64,000 bases of DNA. Source: Spirochaetia bacterium. GTDB taxonomy: Bacteria > Spirochaetota > Spirochaetia > WTKD01 > G963693115. Below the pieces are notes generated by a model. The model was not told the origin of the DNA and did no database searches. It worked only from the letters and a program-made list of their open reading frames with translations. This document shows, in pieces, positions 19,130 through 55,942 of the stretch. Every line of letters starts with the position of its first letter. Positions within the stretch are counted from its first letter, which is position 1. The DNA is taken from contig CBDAKK010000008.1 in assembly GCA_965196605.1 (NCBI GenBank), forward strand, positions 539,257 through 603,256, in the 5' to 3' direction. The translations under genes and the position numbers were made by a program.

Positions 19130-19960
19130 ATGGTGTTTGTACATACATGTGTATATAAAATAGTATGTGGAATAGGGTGTAATGGTGTAACGATGATGGT
19201 GTATCAAGTTTTGCTTGTAGCGCAGTATGTAATGGCTGCAATTGTTTTTGTGGCTCTTTTTAAGTATGTAGCAGCCTATGGCCGCTATGTTGATGATAAG
19301 AAGGGGGCTGCAACGCGCTTTATTTCCTATAGGCGGGGCTGGCTTATTATGGAAGTGCCTGCGGTTTTTACGATACTTATTATGTATGGTGCGGCACTTG
19401 CTCTTGGTAAAAAGCTCAGCATCTTTGCGCTTGCCTTTCTCATTGTGTGGGAAATACATTATGTATATAGAACCTTTATATTCCCTTTTTTAAACCGAAA
19501 CAAGGCGCATGAGTTTACGCTACCCGTAGTCATTGGTGGGCTTGTTTTCAATATCATCAATGGGTTTATCAATGGTTGGGCCTTGTTTTTTACGCCACTC
19601 TTAGAAACGGTGTTGAGTAGAATGATGTATGTGTACATTGGGGTAGCGGTGTTTTTTGTGGGATTTGTTGTTCACGTTACCAGTGATAAAATATTACGGG
19701 ATGTGAAGCGTGCCAATAAGGGGGGCTACGGGGTGCCTCATGGCTTTTTGCATAGTTATGTGGCTGCTCCTAATTATTTTGGGGAAATCCTCCAGTGGTT
19801 TGGATTTTATATTGCAACTGCGTCTCCGGCAGCCTTGGCCTTTGCCTTATTTACGTGTGGAAATCTCATTCCTCGTGCGTATAGGCACAGAAAGTGGTAC
19901 AGGAGTAATTTTACAGAATATCCGCAAAGTCGGAAAATAATTATTCCCTTTGTGTGGTAG
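19130..19960 (+). CDS. 3-oxo-5-alpha-steroid 4-dehydrogenase (SRD5A/DUF1295) family membrane protein
   Basis: C-terminal motif KGGYGVPHGFLHSYVAAPNYFGEILQWFGFY matches the steroid 5-alpha-reductase family signature (GG..EYVS.ANFLGEI.EW). The true start may be the Met at about 19192. Confidence 0.65.
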   Translation: MVFVHTCVYKIVCGIGCNGVTMMVYQVLLVAQYVMAAIVFVALFKYVAAYGRYVDDKKGAATRFISYRRGWLIMEVPAVFTILIMYGAALALGKKLSIFALAFLIVWEIHYVYRTFIFPFLNRNKAHEFTLPVVIGGLVFNIINGFINGWALFFTPLLETVLSRMMYVYIGVAVFFVGFVVHVTSDKILRDVKRANKGGYGVPHGFLHSYVAAPNYFGEILQWFGFYIATASPAALAFALFTCGNLIPRAYRHRKWYRSNFTEYPQSRKIIIPFVW

Positions 19961-19987
19961 AGACACGGGGGAGATAGGGATTGATGT

Positions 19988-20971
19988 ATGGATAGTATAG
20001 CAGTTACAGGTGCTTCGGGGCATTTGGGAAATGTGATAGTCCGAAAGTTGCTGGAGAAGGGGCTCTCGGTTCGAGTTTTGGTGCACAAGGATGCTCGTGC
20101 CTTGGAAGGCTTGGATATTGTGCGAATACATGGGGATATACAGGACATTAATGCATTGCGTACTTTGTGCAAGGGGTGTAAGACGCTGTATCACTGTGCT
20201 GCGCATATTTCTATAGTGTCGTATGAAAAGAAGAAGCTGCACAACGTGAATGTGGAGGGAACCCTCAACGCCATGAAGGTTGCGCGTGAGCAGGGAATGC
20301 GACTGGTGTACATAAGCTCCATAGAGGCTATAGGAAAACAGCATGAGGGCGTGCACAGTGAGAGTGATGGCTTTAGTCCTGAAGATACGCCTATAGATTA
20401 TGGGAAAAGCAAGGCTGAAGCAACTTTGAGCATTATTAAGGCGGCGCAGTCTGATGAACTGGATGCCGTGGTGATATGCCCCGGCGGAATAACGGGGCCT
20501 TTTGAGTTTGGTACGTCTAAAATAGGCAAGATGGTGCGCGACTTTGTTGGCAAGAAATTACCCTCCGGTATTAAAGAGGGGGGCTTTTGCTTTGTGGATG
20601 TGCGCGATGTTGCAAATGCAGCTATAGCTGCTGCGGACAAGGGGAGGCGTGGAGCACATTATATTGCTTCATCTCAATACATAGAGCATAAGGCAATGTT
20701 GGGTATGATTGCAGAACATAGCGGCACGCCCATGCCTAAGTATTATATTTCCACGGGGTTTCTTAAGCTTATTGCACCGCTTGTGGAGTTGTGGGGTTTG
20801 CTCAGTATGAAGGAGCCTTTGTTTTCTTCTGGTGCAGCGCGCGTCTTAGAAAGCAAGTTTAAAGTGCATTCCGCTTGTTTGGAGCAAGACTTGGGGGTGG
20901 TTCCACGCCCATTGGTGGAGTCGCTTATAGACCAAGTTGCGTGGTATGAGGGCAAGAGCGTTCCATTATAA
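19988..20971 (+). CDS. NAD(P)-dependent epimerase/dehydratase (extended SDR; 3beta-HSD/cinnamoyl-CoA-reductase-like)
   Basis: N-terminal Rossmann motif VTGASGHLGNVIVRKLL and the extended SDR length (327 aa). Confidence 0.7.
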   Translation: MDSIAVTGASGHLGNVIVRKLLEKGLSVRVLVHKDARALEGLDIVRIHGDIQDINALRTLCKGCKTLYHCAAHISIVSYEKKKLHNVNVEGTLNAMKVAREQGMRLVYISSIEAIGKQHEGVHSESDGFSPEDTPIDYGKSKAEATLSIIKAAQSDELDAVVICPGGITGPFEFGTSKIGKMVRDFVGKKLPSGIKEGGFCFVDVRDVANAAIAAADKGRRGAHYIASSQYIEHKAMLGMIAEHSGTPMPKYYISTGFLKLIAPLVELWGLLSMKEPLFSSGAARVLESKFKVHSACLEQDLGVVPRPLVESLIDQVAWYEGKSVPL

Positions 20972-21964: not shown

Positions 21965-22012
21965 ATTTGTATTGTAGAAAAAACAGGCATGGTAAGAATG
22001 AGCACAAGGTGC

Positions 22013-22513
22013 TTATGAAAAGAAAAGAATATTTAGTGCTACGAAAGAGGGTTTAAAGAACTTTATTATTTTTTTCTGTACCTTGTTGCCTGCAGAGTCT
22101 ACTACAACCTTGCCATTGTCCTGCATGGTGAGCGTGTCTTTTATGATTCTGCCTCGCACATTTGCAGAGAGCTGTATGGTGCTTGCAGAACCTGTGCTTT
22201 TTTGCGTCCCTGCAAGGTCAAAGCCTTTTTCAAAGCTGCGGCTTGTTTTGTTGCCAAACCACAGAGAACCACGCACGCTGTTGTTTTTTCCGCGTGTAAG
22301 TCGGTATTGCACAATGAGGTTTTTTGTGCCAAGTGCTAGAGAAAAAGAAAGTCGTTTTGCAAAAGGAAGGCTGCGTCCCCCACGAGCTGCCATAGATTTT
22401 GTTTCCATAGGGTCTATGGTTCCTTCATAGGTGCCAAGTGTGTGTTGTGGCGTGTTCTCACAGCTGGTGAAAACAAAGCTTACAGTTAATAAAAAGCATA
22501 AAAGTTTTTTCAT
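22013..22513 (-). CDS. small lipoprotein, tandem paralog family member 1
   Basis: Signal peptide plus lipobox FVFTSC. Shares the G(T)YEGT motif and the C-terminal DNG..L.D..GNK..KK with the two neighbours. Confidence 0.55.
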   Translation of the reverse strand: MKKLLCFLLTVSFVFTSCENTPQHTLGTYEGTIDPMETKSMAARGGRSLPFAKRLSFSLALGTKNLIVQYRLTRGKNNSVRGSLWFGNKTSRSFEKGFDLAGTQKSTGSASTIQLSANVRGRIIKDTLTMQDNGKVVVDSAGNKVQKKIIKFFKPSFVALNILFFS

Positions 22514-22551
22514 ATGTAATTACCTGCCTGCAATAAAGGTGCATAAAAAAA

Positions 22552-22589
22552 CTCCCAAGGCGTAGAGTACGCCCGACGGGAGTTTTTTT
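22552..22589. terminator. bidirectional rho-independent terminator
   Basis: ctcccaaggcgtagagtacgcccgacgggag hairpin flanked by an A-run (22545-22550) and a T-run (22583-22589). Confidence 0.7.
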
Positions 22590-22616
22590 ATATATCAAGG
22601 TTAAACGAGCAATGTG

Positions 22617-23195
22617 CTACTTCTTTTTGAGTTTGTTGCCCATAGAGTCTTCTAATACCGCGCCATTGTCCTTTACCTTCAATTCTCCAGGGACTTTTTT
22701 TCCAAAAGCAGATTTTGGATTTACAACTATTTCTTCCAATTGCTTTTTTACTTTTTTGCGTTGCTCAGGAGATAAAGGTAGGGAGTTTAAAGAAGAAAGT
22801 TGTGTTGTTGCAGTTTTTTTTGTTTCTTCTAGTACTATTTTTTGATCTTCTGTACTTAAGCCTTCCAATGTAGTTTCTAGTGTGTACGCCAATATAACCA
22901 TCCCAGCTCTATCTTCTAAATTTCCTGTTATCTTACCAATCTTGATAAACTTACTATCAAATTTTCTTAAAACAGTTCCAGTAACTTTATTGTTGCTTTC
23001 TCGTTTGAGTTTGAACTGACTAGTTACGTTGTTAGCAGTTCCTTCATACGTGCCGTCTATGTTGACAGACGATGCATTATTGCAGCCCTCCGCTGACATG
23101 GAAATAAGTAGCATGAGACCAAACAAAGCGGCCATTGATGTGATTATTCTTTTCATAGAATACTCCTTTTTATTATTAAAATAATAAGTTGTCAA
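22617..23195 (-). CDS. small lipoprotein, tandem paralog family member 2
   Basis: 192 aa with signal peptide. VNIDGTYEGT and C-terminal KDNGAVLEDSMGNKLKKK, paralogous to 23432..23977. Confidence 0.55.
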   Translation of the reverse strand: MTTYYFNNKKEYSMKRIITSMAALFGLMLLISMSAEGCNNASSVNIDGTYEGTANNVTSQFKLKRESNNKVTGTVLRKFDSKFIKIGKITGNLEDRAGMVILAYTLETTLEGLSTEDQKIVLEETKKTATTQLSSLNSLPLSPEQRKKVKKQLEEIVVNPKSAFGKKVPGELKVKDNGAVLEDSMGNKLKKK

Positions 23196-23373
23196 TACAA
23201 CTTATTATTTATTAATAGTAGGATGCTATGATTTTTTTTCAAGTCTGCGAAGAGAAAAATTATGAAATATTTTCTTGATGAAAGCAACGTGAAAGTGTGC
23301 CTTTATGTAAATAAGGCATTTTATTATTGTGGTGTTTCTTGTGTGTTTTTTTATTACACATGCAATAAAAAAA

Positions 23374-23405
23374 CTCCCACGCGTAGGGTACGCGGGGAGT
23401 TTTAT
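23374..23405. terminator. rho-independent terminator, a duplicate of the 22552 module
   Basis: ctcccacgcgtagggtacgcggggag hairpin with flanking A/T runs, followed by the same 'tatatatcaaggt.aaa..agcaatgtgctacttcttttt' context. Confidence 0.7.
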
Positions 23406-23431
23406 ATATCAAGGTGAAAAAAAGCAATGTG

Positions 23432-23977
23432 CTACTTCTTTTTGTACTTCTTGCCGGCAGGGTCTTCTAAGCTAGCGCCGTTATCAAGTACTTTGAACTT
23501 GGCCGCCTTGTTGTCCTTAAACGTGTACAAAGTTTTGAATTGAGCGAGAACTTTTCCAACTAATGTTGTATCTGCTGTAGCCGCTGCGCTAAACGCCTGC
23601 TTTAATTTTTGATTAATTTTATCGGGAACTTGTTTCCCAAGTTCTTTGTCTTGCACTGGTGTTACGGATGTGTTGAGTGTAATGCCACCTCCTTCATCTT
23701 TTAGGTCTCCCTTTATATCGGCAACTTTAATAAAGCCAAGAAACCCATTGGCGTTCATTTCTATGGTTCCGCTGACCTTTTTATTATTATCGCGTTTCAT
23801 GGTAATCTTAAGGGTGCCTTGGAATTTTTCTTTTCCAATTAGTGTTTTAAAATTCCCAGCTGGTAGTTCATCGGTTCGTTCGTAGGTGCCGTCTACGTTG
23901 ACGTTTGAGGCGCACTGCGCTGAAATAAGTAAAACAAGCCCCAGTAACGAAGCCATTGGTATGATAATTCTCTTCAT
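23432..23977 (-). CDS. small lipoprotein, tandem paralog family member 3
   Basis: 181 aa with signal peptide. VNVDGTYERT and C-terminal LDNGASLEDPAGKKYKKK. Confidence 0.55.
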   Translation of the reverse strand: MKRIIIPMASLLGLVLLISAQCASNVNVDGTYERTDELPAGNFKTLIGKEKFQGTLKITMKRDNNKKVSGTIEMNANGFLGFIKVADIKGDLKDEGGGITLNTSVTPVQDKELGKQVPDKINQKLKQAFSAAATADTTLVGKVLAQFKTLYTFKDNKAAKFKVLDNGASLEDPAGKKYKKK

Positions 23978-24321
23978 AAGAATTTCTCCTTTATATGTGT
24001 GTATTTTTTGAGTTTTTTTTGTAACTACTCTTTAAACAATAATAAGTTTACTTAATGTTTTTAGTCAATAATATTAATGAAAATAAATAAATATTTTTGT
24101 TTTTGTGTAAATAAAAATTTTAATTATGCTATAATAAACCTTTCGTTTTAAGGGTGGTTAGAAAGACTGCTGCATGCATGCTGTTGTCGTGGTACTCATG
24201 CATGTCTTTTTTCAAGGCTGTGCTAGGTTGCAATAATCTTGTTTAGGCGTTTCCTACTGCGCTTAATGGCTTGAGTGTAACTTAAGGCTAACACGTTAGC
24301 ATTGTGAGTAAAAGCTGCATA

Positions 24322-24915
24322 TCAATAATATTTGCTTTCGCGATATGTTTGTTCTCTCATTATTTGCGGGGAAATGAGTCTTAAAAATAAGTCAACATCC
24401 GACTTGTCAAGGTAAATTGGCTCTAAGGTTAACGCCACATTAGAGGTGGAAGTCAAGGAGCCAAACATTATAACCAGCTGGTGTCGCTGCGCGCTTTGAG
24501 AGAAAAAAACAAATACAAGTTCTGCCGAACGCTCTAGTATTGGATAAAAGGTTTTTTCAGGAAAAACCTTTGAAATATGAATGCTTGCATTGAGGTTGTT
24601 TATACTCGTTATTTTCTTTTCTAGGGCTTCTTTGTTGTTCGTTGCTATTCTAGCCCACACGTAGTACTTTTCAAGTGCATCCCGCATCGCTTGTACACTG
24701 GCGGGGTCAAAGTAATAGTAGGCGCTACTGCCTATGGAGTTATAAAATTTTACGTATAAGGCATTATCTTGATAATAAATAGCGCTCTCTTGTTCTACAA
24801 ATTGCTGTGAAGCGCTGTCGTATAATTTATATGTAAATGCTTGGTTCGTAACATCTGTAGCAAAAACCAAAGACACGTGTACGAGTATAAATAACACACT
24901 ACATATTTTTTTCAT
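24322..24915 (-). CDS. hypothetical secreted protein in an AT-rich island
   Basis: 197 aa with signal peptide (VLFILVHVSLVFA). Flanked by intergenic DNA of about 25% GC (24000-24320; 24916-25100). Confidence 0.5.
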   Translation of the reverse strand: MKKICSVLFILVHVSLVFATDVTNQAFTYKLYDSASQQFVEQESAIYYQDNALYVKFYNSIGSSAYYYFDPASVQAMRDALEKYYVWARIATNNKEALEKKITSINNLNASIHISKVFPEKTFYPILERSAELVFVFFSQSAQRHQLVIMFGSLTSTSNVALTLEPIYLDKSDVDLFLRLISPQIMREQTYRESKYY

Positions 24916-25228
24916 TTGTAAACACCTTTATTTTATTATTGTTATTTTAAATATTTTACCCTATATAATTTATTATAATGAATTTATTTAATAATTCAAT
25001 CATTTATAGTTATAATTAAATATCTGTAATGTAATTATAACGTAAAATACGTTTGCACTTTTACTATGTGCATTTTATGTGAATTGCAAGGTCACAGGTT
25101 TTTTACACCCGTTCAAGTTTTAAAATTTACAGTTGCTTGCATGCAAGGTGCGTAACTGTAGGTTGGCTCGCAAGTAAACGCTACGGCGCACTCAGGCAGG
25201 CTACAAGCTAACTGCGCATAATTTTAGG

Positions 25229-27376
25229 TTAGAAAACACCGCCATGTTTCTTGACTTTGGCGACAGTGGCGCTGCCATTAATACGCTTATGTAGCATGTC
25301 AAAAACATCGACTCCAAGTTGTTCCAGTACGTCTATAATGTCTATCATCACCCAGTTTTCCTTCAACAAGTTGCCTTCGCGCCTCCAAAAGTCCATAACT
25401 CGCATGGTGCAGGCAATGCCCGTAGCCTTGAGGCCGAGCCAACCATCACCCGTGTGTGTTGCGTACATGGAGGGGAAACCAAAGTCGCACGCGTAGTTTC
25501 CTTCAGCGTATGAGGCAAAGTAATTCTCTGTGTTCTTGGTCATAATACCCCTGTTGGGGAATGCCGTGAGGTAGGGAAACTGGTGATAATTTTGAAACCC
25601 TGCGAGTCCTCGCGTGGTGCCAATGCCTGCGGGGCTGTACCACATCATTTCCTTTGCATTCCAGTATTGAGACAAGTCTCCCATAGAAGTGGGGTCTTTT
25701 CCATCATAACGGCAGAGGGCATCAAGCATGGCTAAGGTGATATTCAGCGTTTTCTTGCTCTCCGTTTTTTCTACGGGGTATGTAATGATGCCGTCACAAG
25801 TCATGGGGGTGCCTACCATGTATGCCGCACCCCTGCTGGGGAAAATATCAAAGCCCGCTTGGTGTATGAGGTCTAATACATCAAGGAGGTACCAAGCGCG
25901 TGTAATTTTTCCATGTTCTAGAACAAAGTGTGCTTGGTATCGTATGGACGCAAGCTGATAGCTGGGTGGAATGCCAAGCCATGAATGCTCAAAGCTTCCT
26001 AGAAAATTCCCGGCAATACTTACGCATTGCTTTTCTTTATACGTGCCGCCCATGACTATGTACGGGGTATCCTCAATGTCGGGGAAGGCATGGTACAGGG
26101 GCTGCAGAAACTGCGTGCAATAGGCCTGTACTCCGTGTATTTCATGAAAGGGCTTTGAGGCATGAAGTACTACATCATCCGACATATGCGCAGCGACTAT
26201 GCCCATGGGCACGGCATCTGTGCGCGCAATGTCGCGATTAAATGCGTTGATATAGGAGAGTACCGTTTTTTTATTTCGTGTGTTAGCATCCGCTGTGTGA
26301 AGTAATGTATGCCTAGTTTTGGGGTGTGCGGGCAGTGCGTATATTTGGCAGAGTACATCGAACATATCGAACACTGACCATTCTTCTTGAATTTTGCCAT
26401 CTACAACTTGAAAGTGCGTTATGCCAACGACGTGTATTATTTTTTCTGAGGGAGCGCCAAAAACTCCATAATTGCAATGAACTCCTGTGATAGTCCAACG
26501 CACTGCAACCTTGTCTCCCGTCTTTCCCGTGTTGCACGTTATTCGTTCTATAAAAATATCCGCATTGGGAATGGAAGAAAAAAACGCGACAAAGTAGTCC
26601 CGGATTTGTCCGGTGCCACAATATTGCTTTTCGCGAATAGAATGTAAGACGGCATTCTCAGCGTAATATTGTTCCACGCGGTTAAAATAGTGCTTGTGCC
26701 ACAGCTCTGTAAAAAGATCCACGACAAGGTCTATAGAACTACCTCTCGTGTTGTTTGTAAACTCGCAACTCGCAATATTGCATGGGGTAATGGCGTTTTC
26801 TTCTCGTACCACGCGTTGGTCTTCTACTTCAAAGTTGAAATTGTAATGATGAGACTCTTTTGCCAACTCAAGCGGGTCACAGCCCAGTTGTTCAAGTATG
26901 TAATAATTATCGCGCACAAGCCATTCCTCTTCTATAATGTTGTTTGCAATAATGCAGTCCGCTATGCCCCGAAGGAAGATTTTTCTCCCCGTAGGCGCGC
27001 CATAGGCTACGCTGTGTCCCAAATGGGTGGCGGTGCTGCCCAAACGGTGCGAAGAGAAAAACTTGTCCCCCTTGGCTTCAGACCAAATGACCTCTTCGCC
27101 ATAAGGTACACGGTCGGGAAAGGTTTGCAAGGTCTTAAGCGTACCGCTGATAACCGCATCCCTACCACTATGAGTGAACAAGCCCATGTGCAAGGTTATG
27201 TCTTCAGCATAGGTGTTGTACAACTCCCCAATACCTTTGTTTTCCCAAATATCATGCGTAATGGAAAGAATGTAATCGACAATGTTTACGTACTTCTTAT
27301 CAAAATTTGTTAGCGTTTGTTTTTCTCCCTTTTTAAGCTGCTTTGCGCTGTAGACAAGTGCATCTATGCCATTCAT
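25229..27376 (-). CDS. protein with four tandem SnoaL/ester-cyclase-like (NTF2-fold) domains
   Basis: Four ~175-aa repeats, each ending in a G(I/A)P.TG(K/R)...EEW.V.D....L.QLG motif (for example GAPTGRKIFLRGIADCIIANNIIEEEWLVRDNYYILEQLG and WLGIPPSYQLASIRYQAHFVLEHGKITRAWYLLDVLDLIHQAG). This resembles the single-domain COG5485 ester cyclases. Confidence 0.45.
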   Translation of the reverse strand: MNGIDALVYSAKQLKKGEKQTLTNFDKKYVNIVDYILSITHDIWENKGIGELYNTYAEDITLHMGLFTHSGRDAVISGTLKTLQTFPDRVPYGEEVIWSEAKGDKFFSSHRLGSTATHLGHSVAYGAPTGRKIFLRGIADCIIANNIIEEEWLVRDNYYILEQLGCDPLELAKESHHYNFNFEVEDQRVVREENAITPCNIASCEFTNNTRGSSIDLVVDLFTELWHKHYFNRVEQYYAENAVLHSIREKQYCGTGQIRDYFVAFFSSIPNADIFIERITCNTGKTGDKVAVRWTITGVHCNYGVFGAPSEKIIHVVGITHFQVVDGKIQEEWSVFDMFDVLCQIYALPAHPKTRHTLLHTADANTRNKKTVLSYINAFNRDIARTDAVPMGIVAAHMSDDVVLHASKPFHEIHGVQAYCTQFLQPLYHAFPDIEDTPYIVMGGTYKEKQCVSIAGNFLGSFEHSWLGIPPSYQLASIRYQAHFVLEHGKITRAWYLLDVLDLIHQAGFDIFPSRGAAYMVGTPMTCDGIITYPVEKTESKKTLNITLAMLDALCRYDGKDPTSMGDLSQYWNAKEMMWYSPAGIGTTRGLAGFQNYHQFPYLTAFPNRGIMTKNTENYFASYAEGNYACDFGFPSMYATHTGDGWLGLKATGIACTMRVMDFWRREGNLLKENWVMIDIIDVLEQLGVDVFDMLHKRINGSATVAKVKKHGGVF

Positions 27377-27420
27377 AGTCTCTCCTCGTTTTAAAATTGC
27401 ATGGGCATATTTACCCCGTG

Positions 27421-28449
27421 TTATTCTTTATTGCTTCTCTTATTTATCTCACTCATTCTGCCCAGCACATCGAGTCCTTGTTTATAAAGATAGTGGAGCA
27501 AGTCTATAAATACCCAGTTCTCAGCTATTTTGTCTTTGTGTCTGCGGTAGACGTCCACAACGCGCATAGGTGCATGTACCTCACTCGCGGGCAGTCCTAA
27601 AAACCCGCCTACGTTTTTGTTGTTTAAGTTAGGCCAACCAAAAAAGGCGCAATACGCACCTTCGGCAATGCGCGCGACGTGTCCATTAAAAACTTTATCG
27701 CGCAAGTTTTGTCTAAACGGCAGTTGATGATGCTCTTGATATCGCTCTATGGTATATGATGAACCAATTCCAACGGGCCCATGCCATATCATGTCTTCAT
27801 GCCACGTTTGTTCCAAAACCGACTTGGGGCATGTGTTGCTCTTAGACTTGTTCAAGGCATCCAAGTCACCAATCATGCGGTTAATAAGCGCTAAGGTAAG
27901 TGCGCCTTCGCGTTCATCTTGCACGCTTATAAGCAAGCCGTCATGCGTGCGCGGCGCGCTTTTGTAGGCGCAAGGCGTACCAGTCATGGGAGGCAAGGGG
28001 TACACACCTGCTTGGTACATAAGGCTCAAAATGTCAATAAAAAGCGCCGTCTCTACAATGACCCCGTTCTCTACAGCGTGAAACTCCGCATAGGGTAAAA
28101 AAGCCATCTTCCCGTTTGAGGGTATGCCGAGCCAATTGTGGTCAAAGAGTCCTAAAAAATTCCCAATGCTCGCCACCCATGTGGTTTTACCACCATCGCA
28201 GTCATTTGCTCCTGCAAGGAATATGTCCTCACGCCTTTGCAAGGACAAGAGCGCGCGCCGAAGCGGCAGCCAAAATGCATGCGCAACTTCCGCCGCTCCA
28301 TGTTTTTCGTCAAAGGGATGCATGCCCCGCCAGTAATATGAAGTGCTTGTATAGCGTTCTAAAATCCTCAGCAGGTCTTCATCGCGCGCATCCTCTAAGG
28401 CTTGGTGGTACTCTCGCACCACACGCTTGTCTTGAGCAAAATTATTCAT
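27421..28449 (-). CDS. protein with two tandem SnoaL/ester-cyclase-like (NTF2-fold) domains
   Basis: Two repeats with NWLGIPSNGKMAFLPYAEFHAVENGVIVETALFIDILSLMYQAG and GFLGLPASEVHAPMRVVDVYRRHKDKIAENWVFIDLLHYLYKQG, paralogous to the 715-aa protein. Confidence 0.45.
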   Translation of the reverse strand: MNNFAQDKRVVREYHQALEDARDEDLLRILERYTSTSYYWRGMHPFDEKHGAAEVAHAFWLPLRRALLSLQRREDIFLAGANDCDGGKTTWVASIGNFLGLFDHNWLGIPSNGKMAFLPYAEFHAVENGVIVETALFIDILSLMYQAGVYPLPPMTGTPCAYKSAPRTHDGLLISVQDEREGALTLALINRMIGDLDALNKSKSNTCPKSVLEQTWHEDMIWHGPVGIGSSYTIERYQEHHQLPFRQNLRDKVFNGHVARIAEGAYCAFFGWPNLNNKNVGGFLGLPASEVHAPMRVVDVYRRHKDKIAENWVFIDLLHYLYKQGLDVLGRMSEINKRSNKE

Positions 28450-28458
28450 TGCAGGTGT

Positions 28459-30066
28459 TTAGACAAGACTTTGGAACACAAGCAAGAACACAAAGGTGAT
28501 AACAAAAAACGCTAGTAAGTAATAACTGTATTTTTCAAGCTTCCCGGGAACAACAAACCAACCATTATCTGTTTCGACTTTTCCCTGTTCCTTAAAAAGC
28601 AGCTGCTGCCCCTTAATGGAGTAGGGCGACCATGCCTGTTGCCTTCCATCCAGGGCAAGGCTCATGGGCAGTAAAACGGCAATGTTGACTGCAGCCCCAA
28701 TTACGGCGTACCACGGCCACGCTATGCTTGTGTAGGTTGAAACGAGAATAAGCACCACCATGCCCGCGGCAACACCTACAAGTAGCCCTTTTTCTGTTGT
28801 GTGCTTTGAGAAAAAACCCAAGCCATACATGCTAAGTCGTGCCCCCACAAAGTACGAACCGACCTTACTTAATATTTCCAGAATAGAACCCGTAGACTTT
28901 GTGTACATGAGCGCAGGAATGATAATAAGCACTGCCCAAATAATGGTAAAGTAGCGCGTGGCTTTTAAGTAGTGTTGGGGCGACTGCCCCTTTTTAAAGT
29001 AGCGCTCGTAAAAGTCGACTGTCGTACACGTTGCCAATGAATTAAACGCGGAGTCTAAACTCGACATGCTTGCTGCCATGACGGACGCCACAATGAGTCC
29101 CATAAGTCCGGGAATCTTCAATTCATCTATAAATTCAAGAATGATGGTGTTTGCATTATCAAAGCTTTTTCCGCCGTAATAGCTGTAAAACAAGGTGCCC
29201 ATGAGAATGAACAAAAAGTAAATAAAAAACGCAGCAAAGCCCATGAGCAAAAAGGACTTTTTCGCATCACCGATGTTTTTTGCGGCAAGCGTGCGTTGCA
29301 CCATCATTTGGTTAGCGCCGTACACCGTAGTGTGATAGAGCGACATTGCTATGACCCCCGCCCATATGGTAGTACTTTTAGTAAGATCAGCTGACCAGTC
29401 TATGGCGTTCATCTTGCCTGCGCTTTTTAACTCGCTCAGTGTTTCGCTTAATGGTATGGGCATTTTATGCATGAGTTGGTAAATTACAATAATGCCGCCG
29501 CCAAGCAACATGAGCGCTTGTAGCACATCCGTCCATATAACCGCGGTAATACCGCCCATCACCGTGTACAGCAAGGCAACAAGGGTTACAATGATGATGC
29601 AATAGACTACGGATATGCCGGTGATGTAGGCTATGACCAAGGCCGTGCCGTAGAGTATGGCCGCGGAAGACATTGCTTGACTTATGAAAAAGACAATGGA
29701 CATGATGATTCTCGATGTAGGGCCAAATCGCTTTTCTTGGTACTCATAAATAGAGGCAACATCGCTATTAAAAAAGAAGGGAAGGAAAAACGACATGACA
29801 ATTACCACGACAATGGGGTAGTTCATGTGTATTGCAATAACCGACAGGACTGTAGAGTATGACCATGCGGGAGCACCCAAAAAAGTCATTGCGCTTACGT
29901 AAGTGGCAAGCACTGACAGCCCTATAGCCCACCATGGCGTGGTTTTTCTTCCTACGTAAAAATCGCTTGCAGTTTCTACTTTTTTACTCAACAGAGCACC
30001 AAGCACTAAGGTAAGCACCATGTACAACAGCAATACTGCAAAGTTAAATGAACCAAATTCTGCCAT
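28459..30066 (-). CDS. sodium:solute symporter (SSS family)
   Basis: 535 aa with about 13 TM segments and the SSS-family organisation (conserved GG..V.YT.MGG region). First gene of the operon with the two SnoaL-like proteins. Confidence 0.7.
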   Translation of the reverse strand: MAEFGSFNFAVLLLYMVLTLVLGALLSKKVETASDFYVGRKTTPWWAIGLSVLATYVSAMTFLGAPAWSYSTVLSVIAIHMNYPIVVVIVMSFFLPFFFNSDVASIYEYQEKRFGPTSRIIMSIVFFISQAMSSAAILYGTALVIAYITGISVVYCIIIVTLVALLYTVMGGITAVIWTDVLQALMLLGGGIIVIYQLMHKMPIPLSETLSELKSAGKMNAIDWSADLTKSTTIWAGVIAMSLYHTTVYGANQMMVQRTLAAKNIGDAKKSFLLMGFAAFFIYFLFILMGTLFYSYYGGKSFDNANTIILEFIDELKIPGLMGLIVASVMAASMSSLDSAFNSLATCTTVDFYERYFKKGQSPQHYLKATRYFTIIWAVLIIIPALMYTKSTGSILEILSKVGSYFVGARLSMYGLGFFSKHTTEKGLLVGVAAGMVVLILVSTYTSIAWPWYAVIGAAVNIAVLLPMSLALDGRQQAWSPYSIKGQQLLFKEQGKVETDNGWFVVPGKLEKYSYYLLAFFVITFVFLLVFQSLV

Positions 30067-30315
30067 AATTCCCCCTTAAATTTTTTTGTGTCTTTGTACG
30101 CTTTCAAGTTAAGAACTTTAATATTATTGTATCAAGAATGCTCGAAAGAAATATGATGTATGCAAGGTGGTTTATAAAAGCTATAACACAATTGAAGGGG
30201 TGTTATTTGTAAGTGAGTAGTAGTAAAAACCAATCATGCCGGAGAATTCTGTTTCGTTCGTAGAAATTTGTGTACAAGCCCATTATGATGTCATGTGGTA
30301 TAATTTGAACGTAGT

Positions 30316-32034
30316 ATGGAAGAACCACAGAAAAATTCAGGCGATGCTTTACATTCTGCTCTTGCAGAAGTTGAGGCTGAAGGTGTAAAAGATTTTTCCG
30401 AGTACATGGAGGTTTCTCGGGACTTTGGTACTGTGTCTGAGGCGGAACAAAAAGAGCTTTCTAATACCGAGAAGGCACTGCAAAAAATACAAGAAGGAGA
30501 AAAAGAGTACTTACAGGAGTTTGAAAAATTTTATTCGGCTATACCTTTGCACCCGCCTAAGTCACAAGAGACGTATGACTTGCTGATTAACCCCAGTGCT
30601 TTTTATAAAACACTTATGGATTGGGGAGGCGAAGCTGCCAACAAGTTGCATGGCAACATACAGATGTTTTTATCAAACACAGATTCAAAGACACAACAGG
30701 TTGCCCGGCAGAGAATTATAACCTCTTATTGGAATTTTTATGAAGCTGTCATAGAAAATATAACGGGAGCGATGCCCGATGCCCTGTTATTCATGATGCG
30801 GTATGGTATTCTCATTAGTTCTTTGGTTTCAAAAGAGGTCTTGAGTGTTATTGCAAACATTGATATAAAGGCAGCCAATGAAACGACGTTTTATTATGTA
30901 GATGAATGGCTGAGCGCGGTTTCGTCTGGGGTGCTTACGCCTACCGTGCTTAATGAGCAAGGGCCGCAGAATGTGGGTGCAAACTTGGTTGCCATGAAGC
31001 AAAAAAAGGACAACATACAGAGGCAACAGGAACAAAAAATAAGCGCATGCCAAGGCCTAAACTCAGAGATGGGGCAGGTTTTTGACCAAGCAAAGGCTAT
31101 ATTAGACAAGCTTGAACATATGCGTAAGAATTCTGATTTTGATTTTGCTGCTCCCTACACCTCTACAGAGCTACAAGAGTTCAAAAATATTCACGAAGTA
31201 TTAAGATCGATTGTCGGTAAGAACTCTCAATTAGAAGTAGAGTATAATAGCGTTCTCTACAATAAAAAAAACTTGGATAGTTTAAGCGAAGAAGTTGCTG
31301 CATTGGAAGCAAAGGCGGATTCCTCTCAATCCAATGAACCGCAAATACATAAGAGTTTGATTGTCGATGAGCTTACCGTTGTAAGGCAGATGTGTAAGCT
31401 TTGCGTTGGTGCTCGTGGAAATCATTTTCCCCTTTTGTATAAAAGCTATTTTAGTAGTCCCTTTAAGAACATGGGGTATAGAGAACAAGCCGTGCAAGTC
31501 TTTAAAGAAATAGAGTCGATTGATTTTACGCTGTTTCAGAGAATTGTAAAAAGTAACGTCATGCGTAACGCACCCATTGTCTTGCTTGTGCCTTGTTATG
31601 GAAGCCGTGGTTTTTGCTGGGAGCCTTTTGAAAGAGGGCAGCGCAATACCAGTTCTTCAAAATTAGTTGTGCCAATGTATTCACGTGATTTATACACCGC
31701 GGTTGTCTATGCCGTAGGTGATTATCGCTGGCAAATAGCAAAAGAGCTAGCAGGACAATTTTGGATGAAAGAAGGACTTACGGGCTGGTACTTTCAATGG
31801 TTTGACTCAAATATCAAGAAGGGTGACATTAAGGAAAAATTCATAGAAGACTACATATTGTGGATGAAATGGGAACAAAAAGGCGTGCAAAAACTTTCCA
31901 AAGAAGTAAGAGAGATATTTTGGCGTTTTATTCCCTTTACGAGAAAGGTTAAGAAAACCCTTGTTAAAATGGGCCCCGTATATCGCGAACTTAGTAAGAA
32001 AGAGCAGAATCGCGCTGTTTCGGAGATGATGTAA
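30316..32034 (+). CDS. hypothetical cytoplasmic protein
   Basis: 572-aa ORF with coiled-coil-rich composition and no signal peptide. No recognisable domain. Confidence 0.5.
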   Translation: MEEPQKNSGDALHSALAEVEAEGVKDFSEYMEVSRDFGTVSEAEQKELSNTEKALQKIQEGEKEYLQEFEKFYSAIPLHPPKSQETYDLLINPSAFYKTLMDWGGEAANKLHGNIQMFLSNTDSKTQQVARQRIITSYWNFYEAVIENITGAMPDALLFMMRYGILISSLVSKEVLSVIANIDIKAANETTFYYVDEWLSAVSSGVLTPTVLNEQGPQNVGANLVAMKQKKDNIQRQQEQKISACQGLNSEMGQVFDQAKAILDKLEHMRKNSDFDFAAPYTSTELQEFKNIHEVLRSIVGKNSQLEVEYNSVLYNKKNLDSLSEEVAALEAKADSSQSNEPQIHKSLIVDELTVVRQMCKLCVGARGNHFPLLYKSYFSSPFKNMGYREQAVQVFKEIESIDFTLFQRIVKSNVMRNAPIVLLVPCYGSRGFCWEPFERGQRNTSSSKLVVPMYSRDLYTAVVYAVGDYRWQIAKELAGQFWMKEGLTGWYFQWFDSNIKKGDIKEKFIEDYILWMKWEQKGVQKLSKEVREIFWRFIPFTRKVKKTLVKMGPVYRELSKKEQNRAVSEMM

Positions 32035-32058
32035 ATTGCGCTTGCGATTGGAGGTATT

Positions 32059-32766
32059 ATGAAACGCTTATTATTTATACTTATTTTACTTGTTGTGACT
32101 TGGGCACTCTGCGCGCAGTCATCAAACACAAGTGAGCAAACCAACAAAGGAAACTGGCTTTTGAGCCGTGTTTCTTCAGATAAACAAGCAATGAATGCGA
32201 GTATAGAAACTGCCATTCGTTCGGGGCTCATGCCGCAGGCAATGGAGCGCAATGAAGACGGTGTGTTTTTAATGCTTTCTCAAACAACTCCACCTGCGCG
32301 TTTTAGCAAGAGTTGGCAGCTTTTGCGTTACGCTTCTGAACGGAAGCTGATGGAAGAAATGCGCGCGCTTGCACAAGAGGACTGGACGCCAATAGCCATG
32401 GACGTACAAGATGATGGCGCATTTGTGCAATACGTAAAAAACGGATTACGCATTACCAATGCGCGCATGATAAGAATTTCACAGAGCAGTGAAATTCAAG
32501 ACACCGTGCAAGTCTATCGCGACTTAGGATTTTTCCCCGCTGCCCTAAGCACGTATAAGGACGAACTGTGGTTTTTGTTTGCACAGTATGAAAACATGGC
32601 AGTCGAGGACTTTGAAATTTCTATCAAAAGTGGCGATGCTGTAAGCATAGAAGACATTATTGAACAGGGGCTGGCAAGTGAAAAAACACAGTTTATTGAT
32701 ATGGCAATAACCGTGGATAATCAAGTCATCATAGCCTTTATAGAGCCAATTACGCAAAGTCAATAA
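32059..32766 (+). CDS. hypothetical secreted protein
   Basis: 235 aa with signal peptide LLVVTWALCAQS. Confidence 0.5.
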   Translation: MKRLLFILILLVVTWALCAQSSNTSEQTNKGNWLLSRVSSDKQAMNASIETAIRSGLMPQAMERNEDGVFLMLSQTTPPARFSKSWQLLRYASERKLMEEMRALAQEDWTPIAMDVQDDGAFVQYVKNGLRITNARMIRISQSSEIQDTVQVYRDLGFFPAALSTYKDELWFLFAQYENMAVEDFEISIKSGDAVSIEDIIEQGLASEKTQFIDMAITVDNQVIIAFIEPITQSQ

Positions 32767-32839: not shown

Positions 32840-33268
32840 CTACCCCTTGAAGTCCATGTTATGCTTGTTGAAAAATTGCGGGAGGAGTTCTTCCATGCTC
32901 CACGTTTTGTACGCATTTCCCTTAAGGTTTGTGCATATGATGATGGTGTGCTCACTAGCAAACTCTGCCGTAACTTGCCGACACGCGCCGCACATGCTCA
33001 CAGGTTCTTGAGTGTCCGCTATAACTAGCAAGGTGTGTAACTGCCGCATGCCATGCGCCGCAGCGGTAAACAAAGCCACGCGCTCTGCACAGCAAGAGAG
33101 TCCGTACGAGGCATTTTCTATGTTAGCCCCCGAATACAGTGCGCCGCTCTCAGTACACAAGGCTGCGCCAACCTTAAAGTGAGAATACGGCACATAGGCC
33201 TTTTCGCGTACTTCGCGCGCTTGCTCCAGTAGCTTCTCGCGCAACTTCTCGTTGTCTTCTTGCAGCAT
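32840..33268 (-). CDS. cdd: cytidine deaminase
   Basis: Zinc-binding motifs CAERVALFTAAAHG and SMCGACRQV. The ORF-track start (33298) overlaps deoC; an internal Met (about 33268) is more likely. Confidence 0.85.
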   Translation of the reverse strand: MLQEDNEKLREKLLEQAREVREKAYVPYSHFKVGAALCTESGALYSGANIENASYGLSCCAERVALFTAAAHGMRQLHTLLVIADTQEPVSMCGACRQVTAEFASEHTIIICTNLKGNAYKTWSMEELLPQFFNKHNMDFKG

Positions 33269-33269
33269 A

Positions 33270-33998
33270 TCAATACTTCCCCTTATTCTCATCTGCATTT
33301 TCAGCAGCGCGCATTTGCACTATGTCCACACCCGCGCTTGTACCAATTCTATCAGCGCCCGCTTCAATCATGGCACGGGCAGTCGCATAATTCCGTATGC
33401 CCCCCGCAGCCTTTACGCGCGCCTTTTTTCCAACTACACGCTTCATAAGACGTACATGCTCTACCGTAGCCCCAGCGTCCCCAAAGCCCGTGGAGGTTTT
33501 TACAAACTCAGCGCCCGCGCTTATGCACATTTCGCACAGCCGCACTATGTCCTCCTCTAAGAGGTAGCAGGTCTCAATAATAACCTTAAGCAGCGCATGC
33601 GTGTTTTTCACGGCATTGCTTGCTTTGCCAATTGCCTCACGCACCGCGCGTATTTCCTGCAAGACGTAGTCGTAGTCTTGGGAAAAATACGCGCCCAATG
33701 AAACCACCATGTCTATTTCCGTAACACCCTGTGTTACTAAATGCTGCGCCTCACGCGCCTTGCATGCGCTACTCTCATTGCCAAGCGGAAAGCCCACAAC
33801 TGAACAAACACGCGTTGCGCAGCCCTCAAGCTCATGCACACACAAGCTAGCCCACTGGCCGCTTACACACACACAAGCAAACTCATGCGTCCTCGCCTCT
33901 TTGCACAAGGCCACTATATCGCTGCGCTGCGCTGTGGCTTTGAGTACCGTTGCATCTATATATGACGCTATGTCTTTCTCCATCATCAACTCCTCCAA
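33270..33998 (-). CDS. deoC: deoxyribose-phosphate aldolase
   Basis: IDATVLKATA N-terminal motif and Schiff-base lysine region VKTSTGF. Confidence 0.85.
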   Translation of the reverse strand: MEELMMEKDIASYIDATVLKATAQRSDIVALCKEARTHEFACVCVSGQWASLCVHELEGCATRVCSVVGFPLGNESSACKAREAQHLVTQGVTEIDMVVSLGAYFSQDYDYVLQEIRAVREAIGKASNAVKNTHALLKVIIETCYLLEEDIVRLCEMCISAGAEFVKTSTGFGDAGATVEHVRLMKRVVGKKARVKAAGGIRNYATARAMIEAGADRIGTSAGVDIVQMRAAENADENKGKY

Positions 33999-34000
33999 AT

Positions 34001-35317
34001 TTATAACACTTCGTAAATAAGCGGCACAGAGGGTGCAGCATCTGAAGTAGTATACGCCGACTGTATAAGCGCACTCACTTCATCCCGCGTGTGCTCACTC
34101 ATCCCGCGTGCATAATATATACGTGCAAGCGCCTCTCCTTTTTCCAGTTTCTCCCCGGGCTTTTTATGCAGCACTATTCCAACCGCGTGATCTATATCGT
34201 CGCTCTTTGTCTTTCTTCCCGCGCCCAGCATCATGGCAGCCGTACCAATGCGCTGCGCATCAATGGCTTGCACCACCTGCGCGCCCCCGCTGTCCTCGTC
34301 ATAAACAACCTCCATATGCTGCGGCTTACCCATATATGACTTCTCTTCAAGCTCTCGCGGGTCTGCTCCACAGCACACAATAAAGCGCTCTAACATCGTC
34401 AAGGCCTTACCCGTTTTTATAACACCCTCTACCAGCACCTTGCCCGCTTCATATTTTTTTACATCTCCCCGTGCAAGCAACGCCATGCCTGCAAGCGCGC
34501 AGGTGAGTTCGTACACATCACTCGGAGTTTCTTCCCCGCGCAGCATGCTAACGGCCTCATGTACCTCTAGCGCATTCCCCACCGCGCTACCAAGCGGCTG
34601 TCCCATGTCCGAAAGTACGCAGCGCACGTCGCGCCCCGCGCCCTCTCCAATTTTTTTCATGGTCCTTGCCAAAGCGCTTGCGGACGCTACATCCTTCATA
34701 AACGCGCCTGAACCAACCTTCACATCAAGCACTATTGCATTAGACGAGACAGCAAGCTTCTTACTCATAATAGACGAGGCGATGAGCGGAATGCTCTGCA
34801 CGGTACCCGTAACATCGCGCAAGCTGTAGAGTTTTTTATCCAGCGGCACTATGCGCTCTGAATAACTCATGAGCGCCATGTTAGACTCCTTGAGCGTCCT
34901 TTCTATTGCACTGTCCTCCGAAGAAAAGTGGAAGTTCTGCAATGACTCAAGCTTGTCCACCGTGCCGCCCGTGTGCCCAAGCCCGCGCCCGCTAATCTTG
35001 AGCACGGCAAAATCAAGTGCCGCGAGTATGGGAAGGAGCGTAAGGCTTATTTTATCACCCACGCCCCCAGTCGAATGTTTATCTATAACGTACTTGTCAC
35101 TTGGCACGCTTATGGTCTGCCCTGAAGCACGCATGGCCTCGGTTAATGCAGAAAGCTCAGCATCATTCATGCCGTTAAAATACACCGCCATAAGCAGCGC
35201 GCTCATTTGATAGTCGGGAATATCACCCCTTTGATAGGCTTCGCACATCTCGCCTATGGCCTCAGGCCTAAGCGCCTGAGCATTGCGTTTTTCCACAATG
35301 CAATCAACCATTCTCAT
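34001..35317 (-). CDS. pdp: pyrimidine-nucleoside (thymidine) phosphorylase
   Basis: Conserved DKHSTGGVGDKISL phosphate-binding motif. 438 aa. Confidence 0.85.
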   Translation of the reverse strand: MRMVDCIVEKRNAQALRPEAIGEMCEAYQRGDIPDYQMSALLMAVYFNGMNDAELSALTEAMRASGQTISVPSDKYVIDKHSTGGVGDKISLTLLPILAALDFAVLKISGRGLGHTGGTVDKLESLQNFHFSSEDSAIERTLKESNMALMSYSERIVPLDKKLYSLRDVTGTVQSIPLIASSIMSKKLAVSSNAIVLDVKVGSGAFMKDVASASALARTMKKIGEGAGRDVRCVLSDMGQPLGSAVGNALEVHEAVSMLRGEETPSDVYELTCALAGMALLARGDVKKYEAGKVLVEGVIKTGKALTMLERFIVCCGADPRELEEKSYMGKPQHMEVVYDEDSGGAQVVQAIDAQRIGTAAMMLGAGRKTKSDDIDHAVGIVLHKKPGEKLEKGEALARIYYARGMSEHTRDEVSALIQSAYTTSDAAPSVPLIYEVL

Positions 35318-35320
35318 ACG

Positions 35321-36265
35321 TTACCGAGCTCCTTTTTCATATGGTATGCCGAGTGCTTTAGGAACCACTGTTTTACGACTAAAACCAACAAGCGCAAGCA
35401 CTGTCAAAACGTAGGGCAATGCCTTAAAGGCTTCGAGCGGGAGGAAGGCCAAAAACGCAATGTCGTTTGAATAAATGACAAGTATTTGCGAAAACCCAAA
35501 AAACAAGGAAGCAGCCATAACCCCCAGCGGCTTCCACTGCCCAAAAATGAGCGCGGCAAGGGCAATGAACCCCGTGCCATGTACGCTACTCACCGAATAT
35601 TGTGTGTCTTGTGTCAGCACCATGATGCCGCCTGCAAGTCCCGCACAAAGCCCCGAAATAATCACCCCCGCATAACGCATGTAGCTAACGTGTATACCCG
35701 CGCTGTCTACCGCTTGCGGGTGTTCACCTGTAGCGCGCAGGCGTAAGCCAAAGGTGGTTTTGCTAATAACAAACCACGCCACTACAATACACACAATCCC
35801 CAGATATACGGGAGCGTATATATTGGTGAAAAACATGTCCCCTACAATGGGAATGTCTTGCAAGAGTGGAACAGACACCTTTGAAAAGCCGCGTTGAAAG
35901 GCCTGCGTGCGCTGCTGTCCAAAGAATATCTCACAAAAGTATATGGTAGAACCAAGCGCAAAAAAGTTTAGCGCTGTTGCCGATATAATCTGATCTCCTT
36001 TCATGCTCACGCTTATGAATGCATGAATAGTAGCCACCGCCGCGCCTATAAGCGCTCCTACAAATATTGCGAGCCATGGTGCAAAAGCTGTAAGCGGCTC
36101 CAAGACCACGGTGATACTAGCTGCAACAAAGGCGCCAATCATCATAAGCCCCTCAAGCGCTATGTTGGTAACACCACTGCGTTCAGAAAAAAGCCCACCC
36201 AATCCTGCTATGACTATGGGCAAGGAATACGTGAGCGTTTGACTCATCACTGCTGAAAGATTCAC
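35321..36265 (-). CDS. nucleoside ABC transporter permease (BMP-family system, RnsD/NupQ-like)
   Basis: Polytopic membrane protein in an operon with the BMP lipoprotein and the tandem-NBD ATPase. Confidence 0.75.
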   Translation of the reverse strand: MNLSAVMSQTLTYSLPIVIAGLGGLFSERSGVTNIALEGLMMIGAFVAASITVVLEPLTAFAPWLAIFVGALIGAAVATIHAFISVSMKGDQIISATALNFFALGSTIYFCEIFFGQQRTQAFQRGFSKVSVPLLQDIPIVGDMFFTNIYAPVYLGIVCIVVAWFVISKTTFGLRLRATGEHPQAVDSAGIHVSYMRYAGVIISGLCAGLAGGIMVLTQDTQYSVSSVHGTGFIALAALIFGQWKPLGVMAASLFFGFSQILVIYSNDIAFLAFLPLEAFKALPYVLTVLALVGFSRKTVVPKALGIPYEKGAR

Positions 36266-38942: not shown

Positions 38943-39002
38943 AAGTCAAAAAACAAAAAAAGCCGTAGACATATGCTGCGACTTTTATTGGTGCTCCTCC
39001 TA

Positions 39003-55939: not shown

Positions 55940-55942
55940 AAG

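Follow-up and report, generated by a model that had tools for sequence, protein, structure and literature searches.

What might a bacterium gain by encoding a sodium:solute symporter together with two proteins built from two and four tandem SnoaL-like domains? The question is raised by a 64,000-nucleotide (nt) stretch of DNA from a Spirochaetia bacterium (contig CBDAKK010000008.1; "the window" hereafter denotes this whole stretch). In it, three consecutive minus-strand genes encode a 535-amino-acid (aa) protein of the sodium:solute symporter (SSS) family (28459..30066; Pfam SSF, TIGR00813), a 342-aa NTF2-like two-domain protein, here B342 (27421..28449; two Pfam SnoaL stretches), and a 715-aa four-domain protein, here C715 (25229..27376; four Pfam SnoaL stretches). 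We favor, with moderate confidence, the reading that the symporter is an importer and that B342 and C715 are cofactor-free acid/base enzymes carrying out the substrate-specific first steps of a previously undescribed catabolic route. The SSS and B342 genes are separated by 9 nt and the B342 and C715 genes by 44 nt; a GAGGAG ribosome-binding site lies inside the 44-nt gap, neither gap contains a terminator-like site, and locus comparison showed that the order of the operon genes is kept in other genomes. From strand, spacing and conserved gene order, we infer that the three genes form a single operon. A first-pass annotation of the window, made from the letters alone, had proposed this symporter-first layout, and its coordinates were exact.

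The same annotation had described the two NTF2 proteins as one motif block repeated twice and four times. Its domain counts were borne out: Pfam SnoaL (PF07366) matched C715 with 145.2 bits over four stretches and B342 with 44.1 bits over two (cutoff of 28.4), so that these are real domains rather than chance motif matches. Pfam SnoaL_2 matched C715 above its cutoff and B342 slightly under it, and the NCBIfam model TIGR02096 ("ketosteroid isomerase-related") gave weak, sub-threshold matches to the NTF2 proteins (76 and 29 bits; cutoff of 97). Both proteins have the NTF2-like fold, an alpha+beta cone with three helices on a curved antiparallel sheet. No cofactor-binding domain was matched in either by Pfam or NCBIfam, and no signal peptide was evident. 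AlphaFold modeled B342 (pLDDT 93.4, pTM 0.92) as one rigid two-domain body, comprising the less conserved domain 1 (aa ∼3–152; 27994..28443, delimited by model and alignment) and domain 2 (aa ∼177–335; 27445..27921), which is strongly conserved across 78 sequences. For C715 the model reached a pLDDT of 89 and a pTM of 0.54, and residues 351–360 (26297..26326) were disordered (pLDDT <50), which suggests two rigid bodies on a flexible tether. Upstream of this linker lie domain 1 (aa ∼28–172; 26861..27295), the strongly conserved domain of its module in 59 related sequences, and domain 2 (aa ∼210–350; 26327..26749), which contains the best Pfam SnoaL stretch (aa 218–345). Downstream of it, domain 3 (aa ∼362–512; 25841..26293) matches B342 domain 1 by BLASTP and in a six-domain alignment, and domain 4 (aa ∼535–695; 25292..25774) matches B342 domain 2 in its aligned conserved residues.

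The idea of a single repeated block did not survive this comparison. Full-length B342 has a paralogue in the C-terminal half of C715 (aa ∼362–700; 31% identity, BLASTP E = 1e-43). The N-terminal half of C715 (aa ∼17–350) is 44% identical to stand-alone 412-aa Bacillota proteins. Best-match classification resolved three orthogroups, termed N (the N-terminal half of C715), Ca (its C-terminal half) and Cb (B342). The six domains are therefore three didomain bodies of distinct orthologous types and not copies of one unit, with C715 a fusion of an N didomain to a paralogue of B342. N and Ca are encoded as separate genes in Gillisia, Polaribacter and other genomes. N and Cb were found together in most inspected lineages except haloarchaea, and Ca is an additional paralogue that adjoins N or is fused with it. 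Four-domain N-Ca proteins (∼690 aa) form about 60 sequence clusters, and databases also hold a longer N-Ca-Ca fusion of 1039 aa. In one 634-aa protein from the library of representative sequences (P0390), an N-type didomain is naturally fused to the alpha/beta hydrolase of the clusters described below, which shows the motifs PGTLCD and GFSLGG; this fusion is independent evidence that hydrolase and didomain act together. A further protein of that library, P0434 (1177 aa), is unrelated to the module and carries six generic SnoaL-like repeats followed by a C-terminus that by eye resembles a secretion tail; long SnoaL arrays thus occur also in probably extracellular proteins.

To establish how widely this arrangement occurs, one genome per species was scanned, which gave at least 586 confirmed matches. 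The best 79 of these came from Bacteroidota, Spirochaetota (including Brachyspira pilosicoli), Alpha-, Beta- and Gammaproteobacteria, Fusobacteriota, Clostridia, Bacilli, Chloroflexota and haloarchaea, and the core of N, Cb and SSS recurs in at least eight phyla. B342 has 4745 database relatives, the best 120 of which are 58–65% identical to it, and the N family comprises 127 clusters among 50%-identity representatives (E up to 1e-30). In the inspected loci outside the haloarchaea, minimal modules of anaerobes included, Cb orthologues were 51–65% identical to B342; haloarchaeal copies reached only 34–39%. The first-pass annotation had suggested that the substrate is possibly host derived. This gained no support, as the genome belongs to a deep, uncultured Spirochaetota-like lineage and, among the matches listed, the module occurs most often in Bacteroidota of marine, freshwater and soil origin, in Bacilli, in fermentative anaerobes and in haloarchaea.

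Open reading frames (ORFs) were called and clustered in 90 related loci, and cluster representatives were annotated. C-type NTF2 genes (Ca or Cb) were present in 72 of the 90 loci, N-type genes in 55 and the SSS orthogroup of the window in 51. The most frequent enzymes were an HpcH/HpaI aldolase (47 loci), a PcaD-like alpha/beta hydrolase with its G-x-S-x-G motif intact (40), a cupin or bicupin with an H-x-H...E motif (37), an SDR (33) and a HisD-like dehydrogenase (31), accompanied less often by a lipoprotein-type S9 hydrolase (17) and a short MetE-like protein (12). Regulators were of the LacI (26) and ROK (18) types, and SusD, SusC and an MFS transporter of the organic-anion type (c12) were found in 22, 19 and 18 loci, respectively. 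The proposal of a dedicated uptake-plus-transformation unit was upheld by loci of at least 15 kb: a transporter lies beside the NTF2 genes in 62 of 65, and in 45 of these 65 it includes the SSS orthogroup of the window. Transporter families are swapped around the same NTF2 genes (SSS, MFS, TRAP and CUT1-type ABC), and each NTF2 type tends to have a transporter of its own as neighbor: MFS follows N in 15 cases, and SSS lies beside C-type genes in 25. In fermentative anaerobes the module is minimal (N module, MFS, C module, SSS, LacI). The extended module of Bacteroidota, Bacilli and others comprises hydrolase, HpcH, N (with or without Ca), cupin, S9, HisD, SSS, SDR and Cb; to this set Bacilli add an iron-containing alcohol dehydrogenase (Fe-ADH) and an aldehyde dehydrogenase, and Anaerolineae add AOR. 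MFS c12 (18 loci) and HpcH (47 loci) share no locus (Fisher P = 1.6e-7). A single cluster may contain as many as four paralogous didomain genes. At some loci, URO-D with a B12-binding protein are alternative signs of methyl removal, and amide or ester hydrolases of the lipoprotein-type S9, M19, M20 and creatininase families lie beside the clusters. Several recurrent neighbor families had no match in Pfam or NCBIfam. Beside the NTF2 cluster of a gammaproteobacterium, a Bacteroidota member and a haloarchaeon (L037, 9148–9768; L044, 816–1418; L064, 17222–17860) we also observed a PF03458 "glycine transporter"-family membrane protein, and in two Halobellus species (L071, 17963–19486) GcvT and GcvH genes adjoin the cluster.

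Conserved residues were then compared in sequences from the related loci, comprising 78 C-type (26–63% identity) and 59 N-type (17–47%) proteins. In domain 1 of B342, only P45, G96, F102, D139 and Q146 are conserved at 95% or more. Domain 2 retains W222, H241, Q242, D299, E310, N311, W312 and D316 at that level and R303 and W216 at 85–95%, and their counterparts in C715 domain 4 are W579, H598, Q599, D662, R666, E673, N674, W675 and D679. C715 domain 1 keeps W44, Y56, W98, S109, H110, C141, N146, E151, W152, D156 and Q163 at 95% or more among N-type sequences; in domain 2 the conserved residues are R293, W294, E332, W333, D337 and Q344. The expectation of a conserved pocket in every repeat must therefore be narrowed, since dense polar conservation is confined to about one domain per didomain (the second in Cb and Ca, mainly the first in N), and the partner domain retains little besides a structural C-terminal Asp/Gln motif. 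With one strongly conserved polar cluster per didomain, the main pockets, active or binding, would number three instead of six. The N pocket probably consists of Ser109-His110, Cys141 and Glu151, and that of Ca and Cb probably of His-Gln, Asp-x-Tyr(Trp)-x-Arg and Glu-Asn-Trp. In the B342 model we infer, from strand register, that D299, Y301 and R303 share a face with E310 and W312.

Whether these pockets could be those of genuine SnoaL-type polyketide or ester cyclases of a secondary-metabolite pathway, as the Pfam family name and the database label "ester cyclase" would have it, was addressed by aligning the six domains with the SnoaL sequence, confirmed against 1SJW. Asp121 of SnoaL is crucial to its function (PMC9828297). 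The position of this residue holds L/S/Y/V/L/V in the six domains. His119, His107 and Gln105, which we take to be further catalytic residues of SnoaL, are replaced by E/E/A/N/T/N, A/T/A/D/E/D and G/G/Y/V/Y/V, respectively. With all four positions changed in all six domains, B342 and C715 are very unlikely to be SnoaL-type cyclases, and "ester cyclase" is a label for the fold only. Polyketide synthase (PKS) and tailoring genes were likewise absent from the window and from the recurrent families of the 90 loci, where the context is one of transporters, sugar-type regulators and catabolic enzymes. With neither the catalytic residues nor a biosynthetic setting, we rejected this reading as scarcely credible. 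The characterized PF07366 proteins also differ in build: SnoaL/AknH and SnoaL2/AclR/KstA15 are single-domain proteins of ∼140 aa that form homo-oligomers and act on aromatic polyketides in a biosynthetic context. SnoaL-like structures from structural genomics (3KKG from Jannaschia, 3I0Y from Xanthomonas and 4LGQ from Chromobacterium) have one domain, and gene context is not shared with them.

Enzymes with two NTF2 domains are a closer parallel. Among solved structures, only the polyether epoxide hydrolases/cyclases Lsd19 (lasalocid) and MonBI-MonBII (monensin) are NTF2 enzymes of a tandem or hetero kind; they combine two such domains in one body, fused or heterodimeric, in which each domain is able to host its own step; B342, with a pTM of 0.92, likewise appears as a two-domain unit. 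Both were the top Foldseek matches of both models (E = 1.7e-10 and 3e-10). Each domain here might then open an epoxide or strained ether with an acid/base-activated water, as do Lsd19, MonB and limonene-epoxide hydrolase (LEH). In the models of Cb and Ca, a conserved Asp299-x-Tyr-x-Arg303 would lie opposite Glu310 on adjacent strands, and this group recalls what we take to be the Asp-Arg-Asp arrangement of LEH. MetE-like proteins, found at some of the loci, are related to epoxyalkane:CoM transferase. Nevertheless, global TM-scores were 0.31–0.40 and identities 10–13% (12–13% for Lsd19), so the resemblance amounts to the presence of two NTF2 domains in one chain. Pfam assigned the domains to SnoaL and SnoaL_2, the LEH-family model was absent from the reported matches, genes forming polyethers or epoxides were absent nearby, and we know of no widespread epoxide nutrient that would fit LacI/ROK regulation. 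Lsd19 and MonB moreover belong to the LEH branch, serve biosynthesis in PKS clusters and pack their domains differently, as opposed to the SnoaL branch seen here; they are not known to be associated with a transporter or with aldolase-based catabolism, and four- or six-domain forms do not occur among them. We consider epoxide or ether opening of this type improbable.

The transporter gives a second view of the substrate. Pfam SSF (PF00474) matched the SSS protein with 157.9 bits (E = 4.8e-46; cutoff of 22.8) and TIGR00813 with 218.1 bits (cutoff of 184), which identifies a full-length SSS family member (TC 2.A.21). By homology, it is assigned as a Na+-coupled importer of the SiaT/SGLT type. 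Its nearest solved structure is SiaT of Proteus mirabilis (5NV9; E = 2.6e-56, next best 1e-40). In alignment with SiaT, S335 and S336 correspond to the Na2 residues Ser342 and Ser343 and D180 and S339 to the Na3 residues Asp182 and Ser346, suggesting similar sodium coupling; Ser345 of SiaT is Asp338 in the window protein. The substrate-binding Arg135 and Gln82 of SiaT, both required for transport of Neu5Ac (PMC5931594), are replaced by S133 and H80, and these replacements are conserved among the SSS proteins that share 50% identity or more with that of the window. With the sodium sites kept and Arg135 and Gln82 replaced, the transporter would work like SiaT without being a sialic acid carrier.

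This bears on the possibility that the locus serves import of sialic or other nonulosonic or ulosonic acids, with an SSS orthologous to SiaT, NTF2 proteins acting as anomerases or ring openers, and HpcH as a pyruvate lyase elsewhere. The closeness of SiaT speaks for it, as does the set of transporters around the module (SSS, MFS, TRAP and ABC), which are the four families known for sialic acid. The best match of the MFS protein is the sialate:H+ family, albeit at 88 bits against a cutoff of 553, ROK proteins are present, and HpcH cleaves 4-hydroxy-2-oxo acids to pyruvate. Set against these points are the two substituted residues essential for Neu5Ac and the composition of the 90 loci, in which NanA, NanE, NanK and sialidase were not among the recurrent families; no genes of sialic acid catabolism are associated with the module. 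Orthology to SiaT as a sialic acid transporter was therefore rejected on the basis of Arg135 and Gln82, and the reading as a whole is very unlikely.

Returning to import followed by acid/base catalysis, the solute would enter by Na+-coupled transport through the SSS protein, and the didomains would act directly after uptake, by a proton-shift isomerization, hydration or dehydration, beta-elimination or addition of water to an electrophilic carbon. In lineages with full clusters, the product would pass to the SDR, the metal-binding cupin, the PcaD-like serine hydrolase and the HpcH/HpaI class II aldolase. HpcH would then perform a retro-aldol split to pyruvate and an aldehyde, the latter being handled by Fe-ADH, aldehyde dehydrogenase or AOR. 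Fermenters without this lower pathway have a second transporter, of the MFS type, in its place, possibly exporting a leftover fragment. The genome studied here has the bare form (SSS, Cb and N-Ca), and the downstream fate of the solute would thus lie outside the 64-kb window. To judge from the LacI and ROK regulators and the CUT1 ABC systems, the solute would be polar and resemble a sugar or cyclitol. Hydrolases of the M19, M20 and creatininase families and the S9 lipoprotein of the periplasm point to frequent uptake as an ester, amide or amino-acid conjugate. In some cases the solute would also carry a methyl group, as indicated by MetE-like proteins or by URO-D with a B12-binding protein, and a primary alcohol, as indicated by the HisD-like enzyme.

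The logic is familiar from sugar-acid catabolism. The nonphosphorylative route of L-rhamnose proceeds through a dehydrogenase, a lactonase and a dehydratase to a KDR aldolase of the YfaU/RhmA type. By analogy, the SDR, hydrolase, HpcH, lactaldehyde-type aldehyde dehydrogenase and Fe-ADH of the extended clusters might be arranged in the same way. However, an enolase-superfamily or IlvD-type dehydratase was found in none of the loci, and its place in the extended clusters is taken by the NTF2 didomains, the cupin and, often, the HisD-like four-electron alcohol dehydrogenase; the window holds none of the lower-pathway genes.

Support for acid/base catalysis comes from the persistence of the conserved polar clusters across the divergent C-type and N-type sets and from the aldehyde-handling enzymes that follow HpcH in related loci. 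Several points weigh on the other side. Transcription of the operon as one unit is predicted from spacing. The proposed chemistry is derived from fold precedent and residue conservation. The window carries no accessory gene: a tblastn search of the 64 kb with all accessory families found none besides the bare SSS, Cb and N-Ca, so that the link to an aldolase pathway rests on orthologues in other genomes. The SSS proteins of the Bacteroidota and Gammaproteobacteria clusters are 60–64% identical to that of the window, those of the minimal anaerobe modules ∼30%, with other residues at the Arg135 and Gln82 positions; as the ∼60% and ∼30% subgroups differ in their pocket residues, lineages may use different substrates. 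Finally, NTF2 domains can be noncatalytic binders.

If so, the didomains would be cytoplasmic proteins that bind or sequester the imported solute, or regulators that capture or sense it. The NTF2 superfamily does contain many nonenzymatic binders, although its intracellular members are mostly enzymatic (PMC3924330). NTF2-like domains are known both as binders of small molecules and as sensors attached to sigma factors. A SnoaL_2 domain is fused to sigma-J of Mycobacterium tuberculosis, and the loss of the SnoaL catalytic residues in all six domains would fit a binding role, as would minimal modules composed of transporters, NTF2 proteins and a regulator only. Conversely, clusters of invariant His, Cys, Asp, Glu and Arg are retained across 17–63% identity, the genes sit among catabolic enzymes, a serine hydrolase is joined to one of the didomains in a single chain, and clusters with as many as four paralogous didomain genes fit consecutive steps better than binding. 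We therefore regard a purely binding function as rather unlikely and retain enzymes of a catabolic route as the preferred explanation.

A more specific version of the catabolic route is doubtful as yet. In it, N, Cb and the symporter would constitute a new, cofactor-independent system for C–N cleavage of conjugates in which an amino acid is attached to a core of the keto-sugar or cyclitol type; speculative examples of such substrates are mycosporine-like amino acids or gadusol-type compounds and Amadori-type fructosyl-amino acids. In the NTF2 pockets, an enaminone or ketoamine would take up water or lose its amine by elimination. Fermenters would retain the freed amino acid, and the MFS transporter would carry the core out of the cell. 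Aerobes would demethylate the core, oxidize its hydroxymethyl group (HisD-like) and open the ring (cupin and enol-lactonase-like hydrolase), after which HpcH would split the product into pyruvate and a second fragment. Hints in this direction, none of them decisive, are the varied amidohydrolases, the methyl-transfer proteins, the PF03458 and glycine-cleavage genes, the mutual exclusivity of MFS and HpcH, and the carriers themselves, among which organisms of marine and mat habitats, haloarchaea and fermenters of amino acids are enriched. No work on mycosporine catabolism was found in the literature searched. Sulfoquinovose, 6-deoxyhexoses, pantothenate, creatinine, methyl-inositol and folate fragments were also considered and not adopted, since each covers part of the accessory genes; ulosonic acids and sulfonates are partial fits that leave several genes unexplained.

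The literature searched contained no paper on these proteins, or one combining the annotation terms of the cluster, and no solved structure has this multi-didomain architecture, in keeping with the earlier remark that it could not be placed in a known pathway. The fold, tandem NTF2 enzymes such as Lsd19 and transporter-linked catabolic operons are already known; new are the system of three didomain types with its residue sets and the broad, conserved catabolic setting in which it occurs. Multi-domain NTF2 proteins now labeled "ester cyclase" or "nuclear transport factor 2 family protein" form the constant core of a transporter-linked module, and such proteins are found in at least several hundred species. 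Cb and the symporter are 50–65% identical across most phyla (lower for haloarchaeal Cb), which indicates a common and probably abundant environmental compound. If this compound were identified, a fold that is familiar mainly from the biosynthesis of natural products would gain a new type of reaction, and thousands of gene annotations would acquire a meaning. Cultured carriers include Peribacillus, Priestia, Gillisia, Propionigenium maris, Acidaminobacter hydrogenoformans, Brachyspira pilosicoli and Haloarcula.

The operon may have been acquired horizontally. Its G+C content (0.46 for 26001–30000) exceeds that of its flanks (0.39–0.40 for 22001–26000 and 30001–32000), and the Cb and SSS proteins are 60–65% identical to homologues from Bacteroidota and Gammaproteobacteria. 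As a housekeeping-type enzyme of the window for comparison, pyrimidine-nucleoside phosphorylase is 69–72% identical to unnamed relatives and only ∼50% to named ones (a Spirochaetes metagenome-assembled genome [MAG], Thiospirochaeta and Haliovirga). The higher G+C and the higher identity of Cb and SSS hint at transfer, with which the data are compatible without proving it. A protein identical to C715 is present in the sequence database, and the nearest named relative of C715 is from a Spirochaetota MAG (59%). Upstream of the SSS gene, a 249-nt divergent intergenic region (30067..30315), positioned as a presumed promoter or regulatory region, contains weak sigma-70-like matches on the minus strand (30309–30282 and 30107–30080). 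An Rfam scan of this region matched no element, and no riboswitch was found by Rfam near the module in the window or in 13 related loci. No regulator gene was seen adjoining the operon in the window. On the other side of the region, two divergent ORFs (572 and 235 aa; 30316–32766, plus strand) had no Pfam or NCBIfam match, and the start of the 235-aa ORF resembles a signal peptide.

Further features were noted elsewhere in the window. A nucleoside salvage/catabolism operon (32840–40058, minus strand) encodes cytidine deaminase, DeoC aldolase, pyrimidine-nucleoside phosphorylase, two permeases, an ABC ATPase and a Bmp/PnrA binding protein, and a second Bmp-family binding protein follows at 44130–45173 (minus strand). 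At 19130–20971 (plus strand), a membrane protein of the 3-oxo-5-alpha-steroid 4-dehydrogenase family (Steroid_dh, E = 3e-42) precedes an NAD-dependent epimerase/3-beta-HSD-like protein, a pair unusual for a spirochaete-like genome; 4 kb separate it from the NTF2 operon, and it is encoded on the opposite strand. A link of the NTF2 operon to either the nucleoside or the steroid reductase-like genes was rejected, because these are separate transcription units and their genes are not among the recurrent families of the related loci. Three tandem small ORFs (166, 192 and 181 aa; 22013–23977, minus strand) have lipoprotein-like signal sequences; two of them are plainly paralogous (33% identity, E = 1e-19), with MKRII..MA.L.GL.LLIS in common at the N-terminus and ..DNGA.LED..G.K.KKK at the C-terminus. 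A fourth secreted-looking ORF (197 aa) lies at 24322–24915 (minus strand), and none of the four had a Pfam or NCBIfam match. Two adjacent tRNA genes (55867–56024) and a class A bacterial RNase P RNA (62293–62641; 260 bits) are located on the plus strand.

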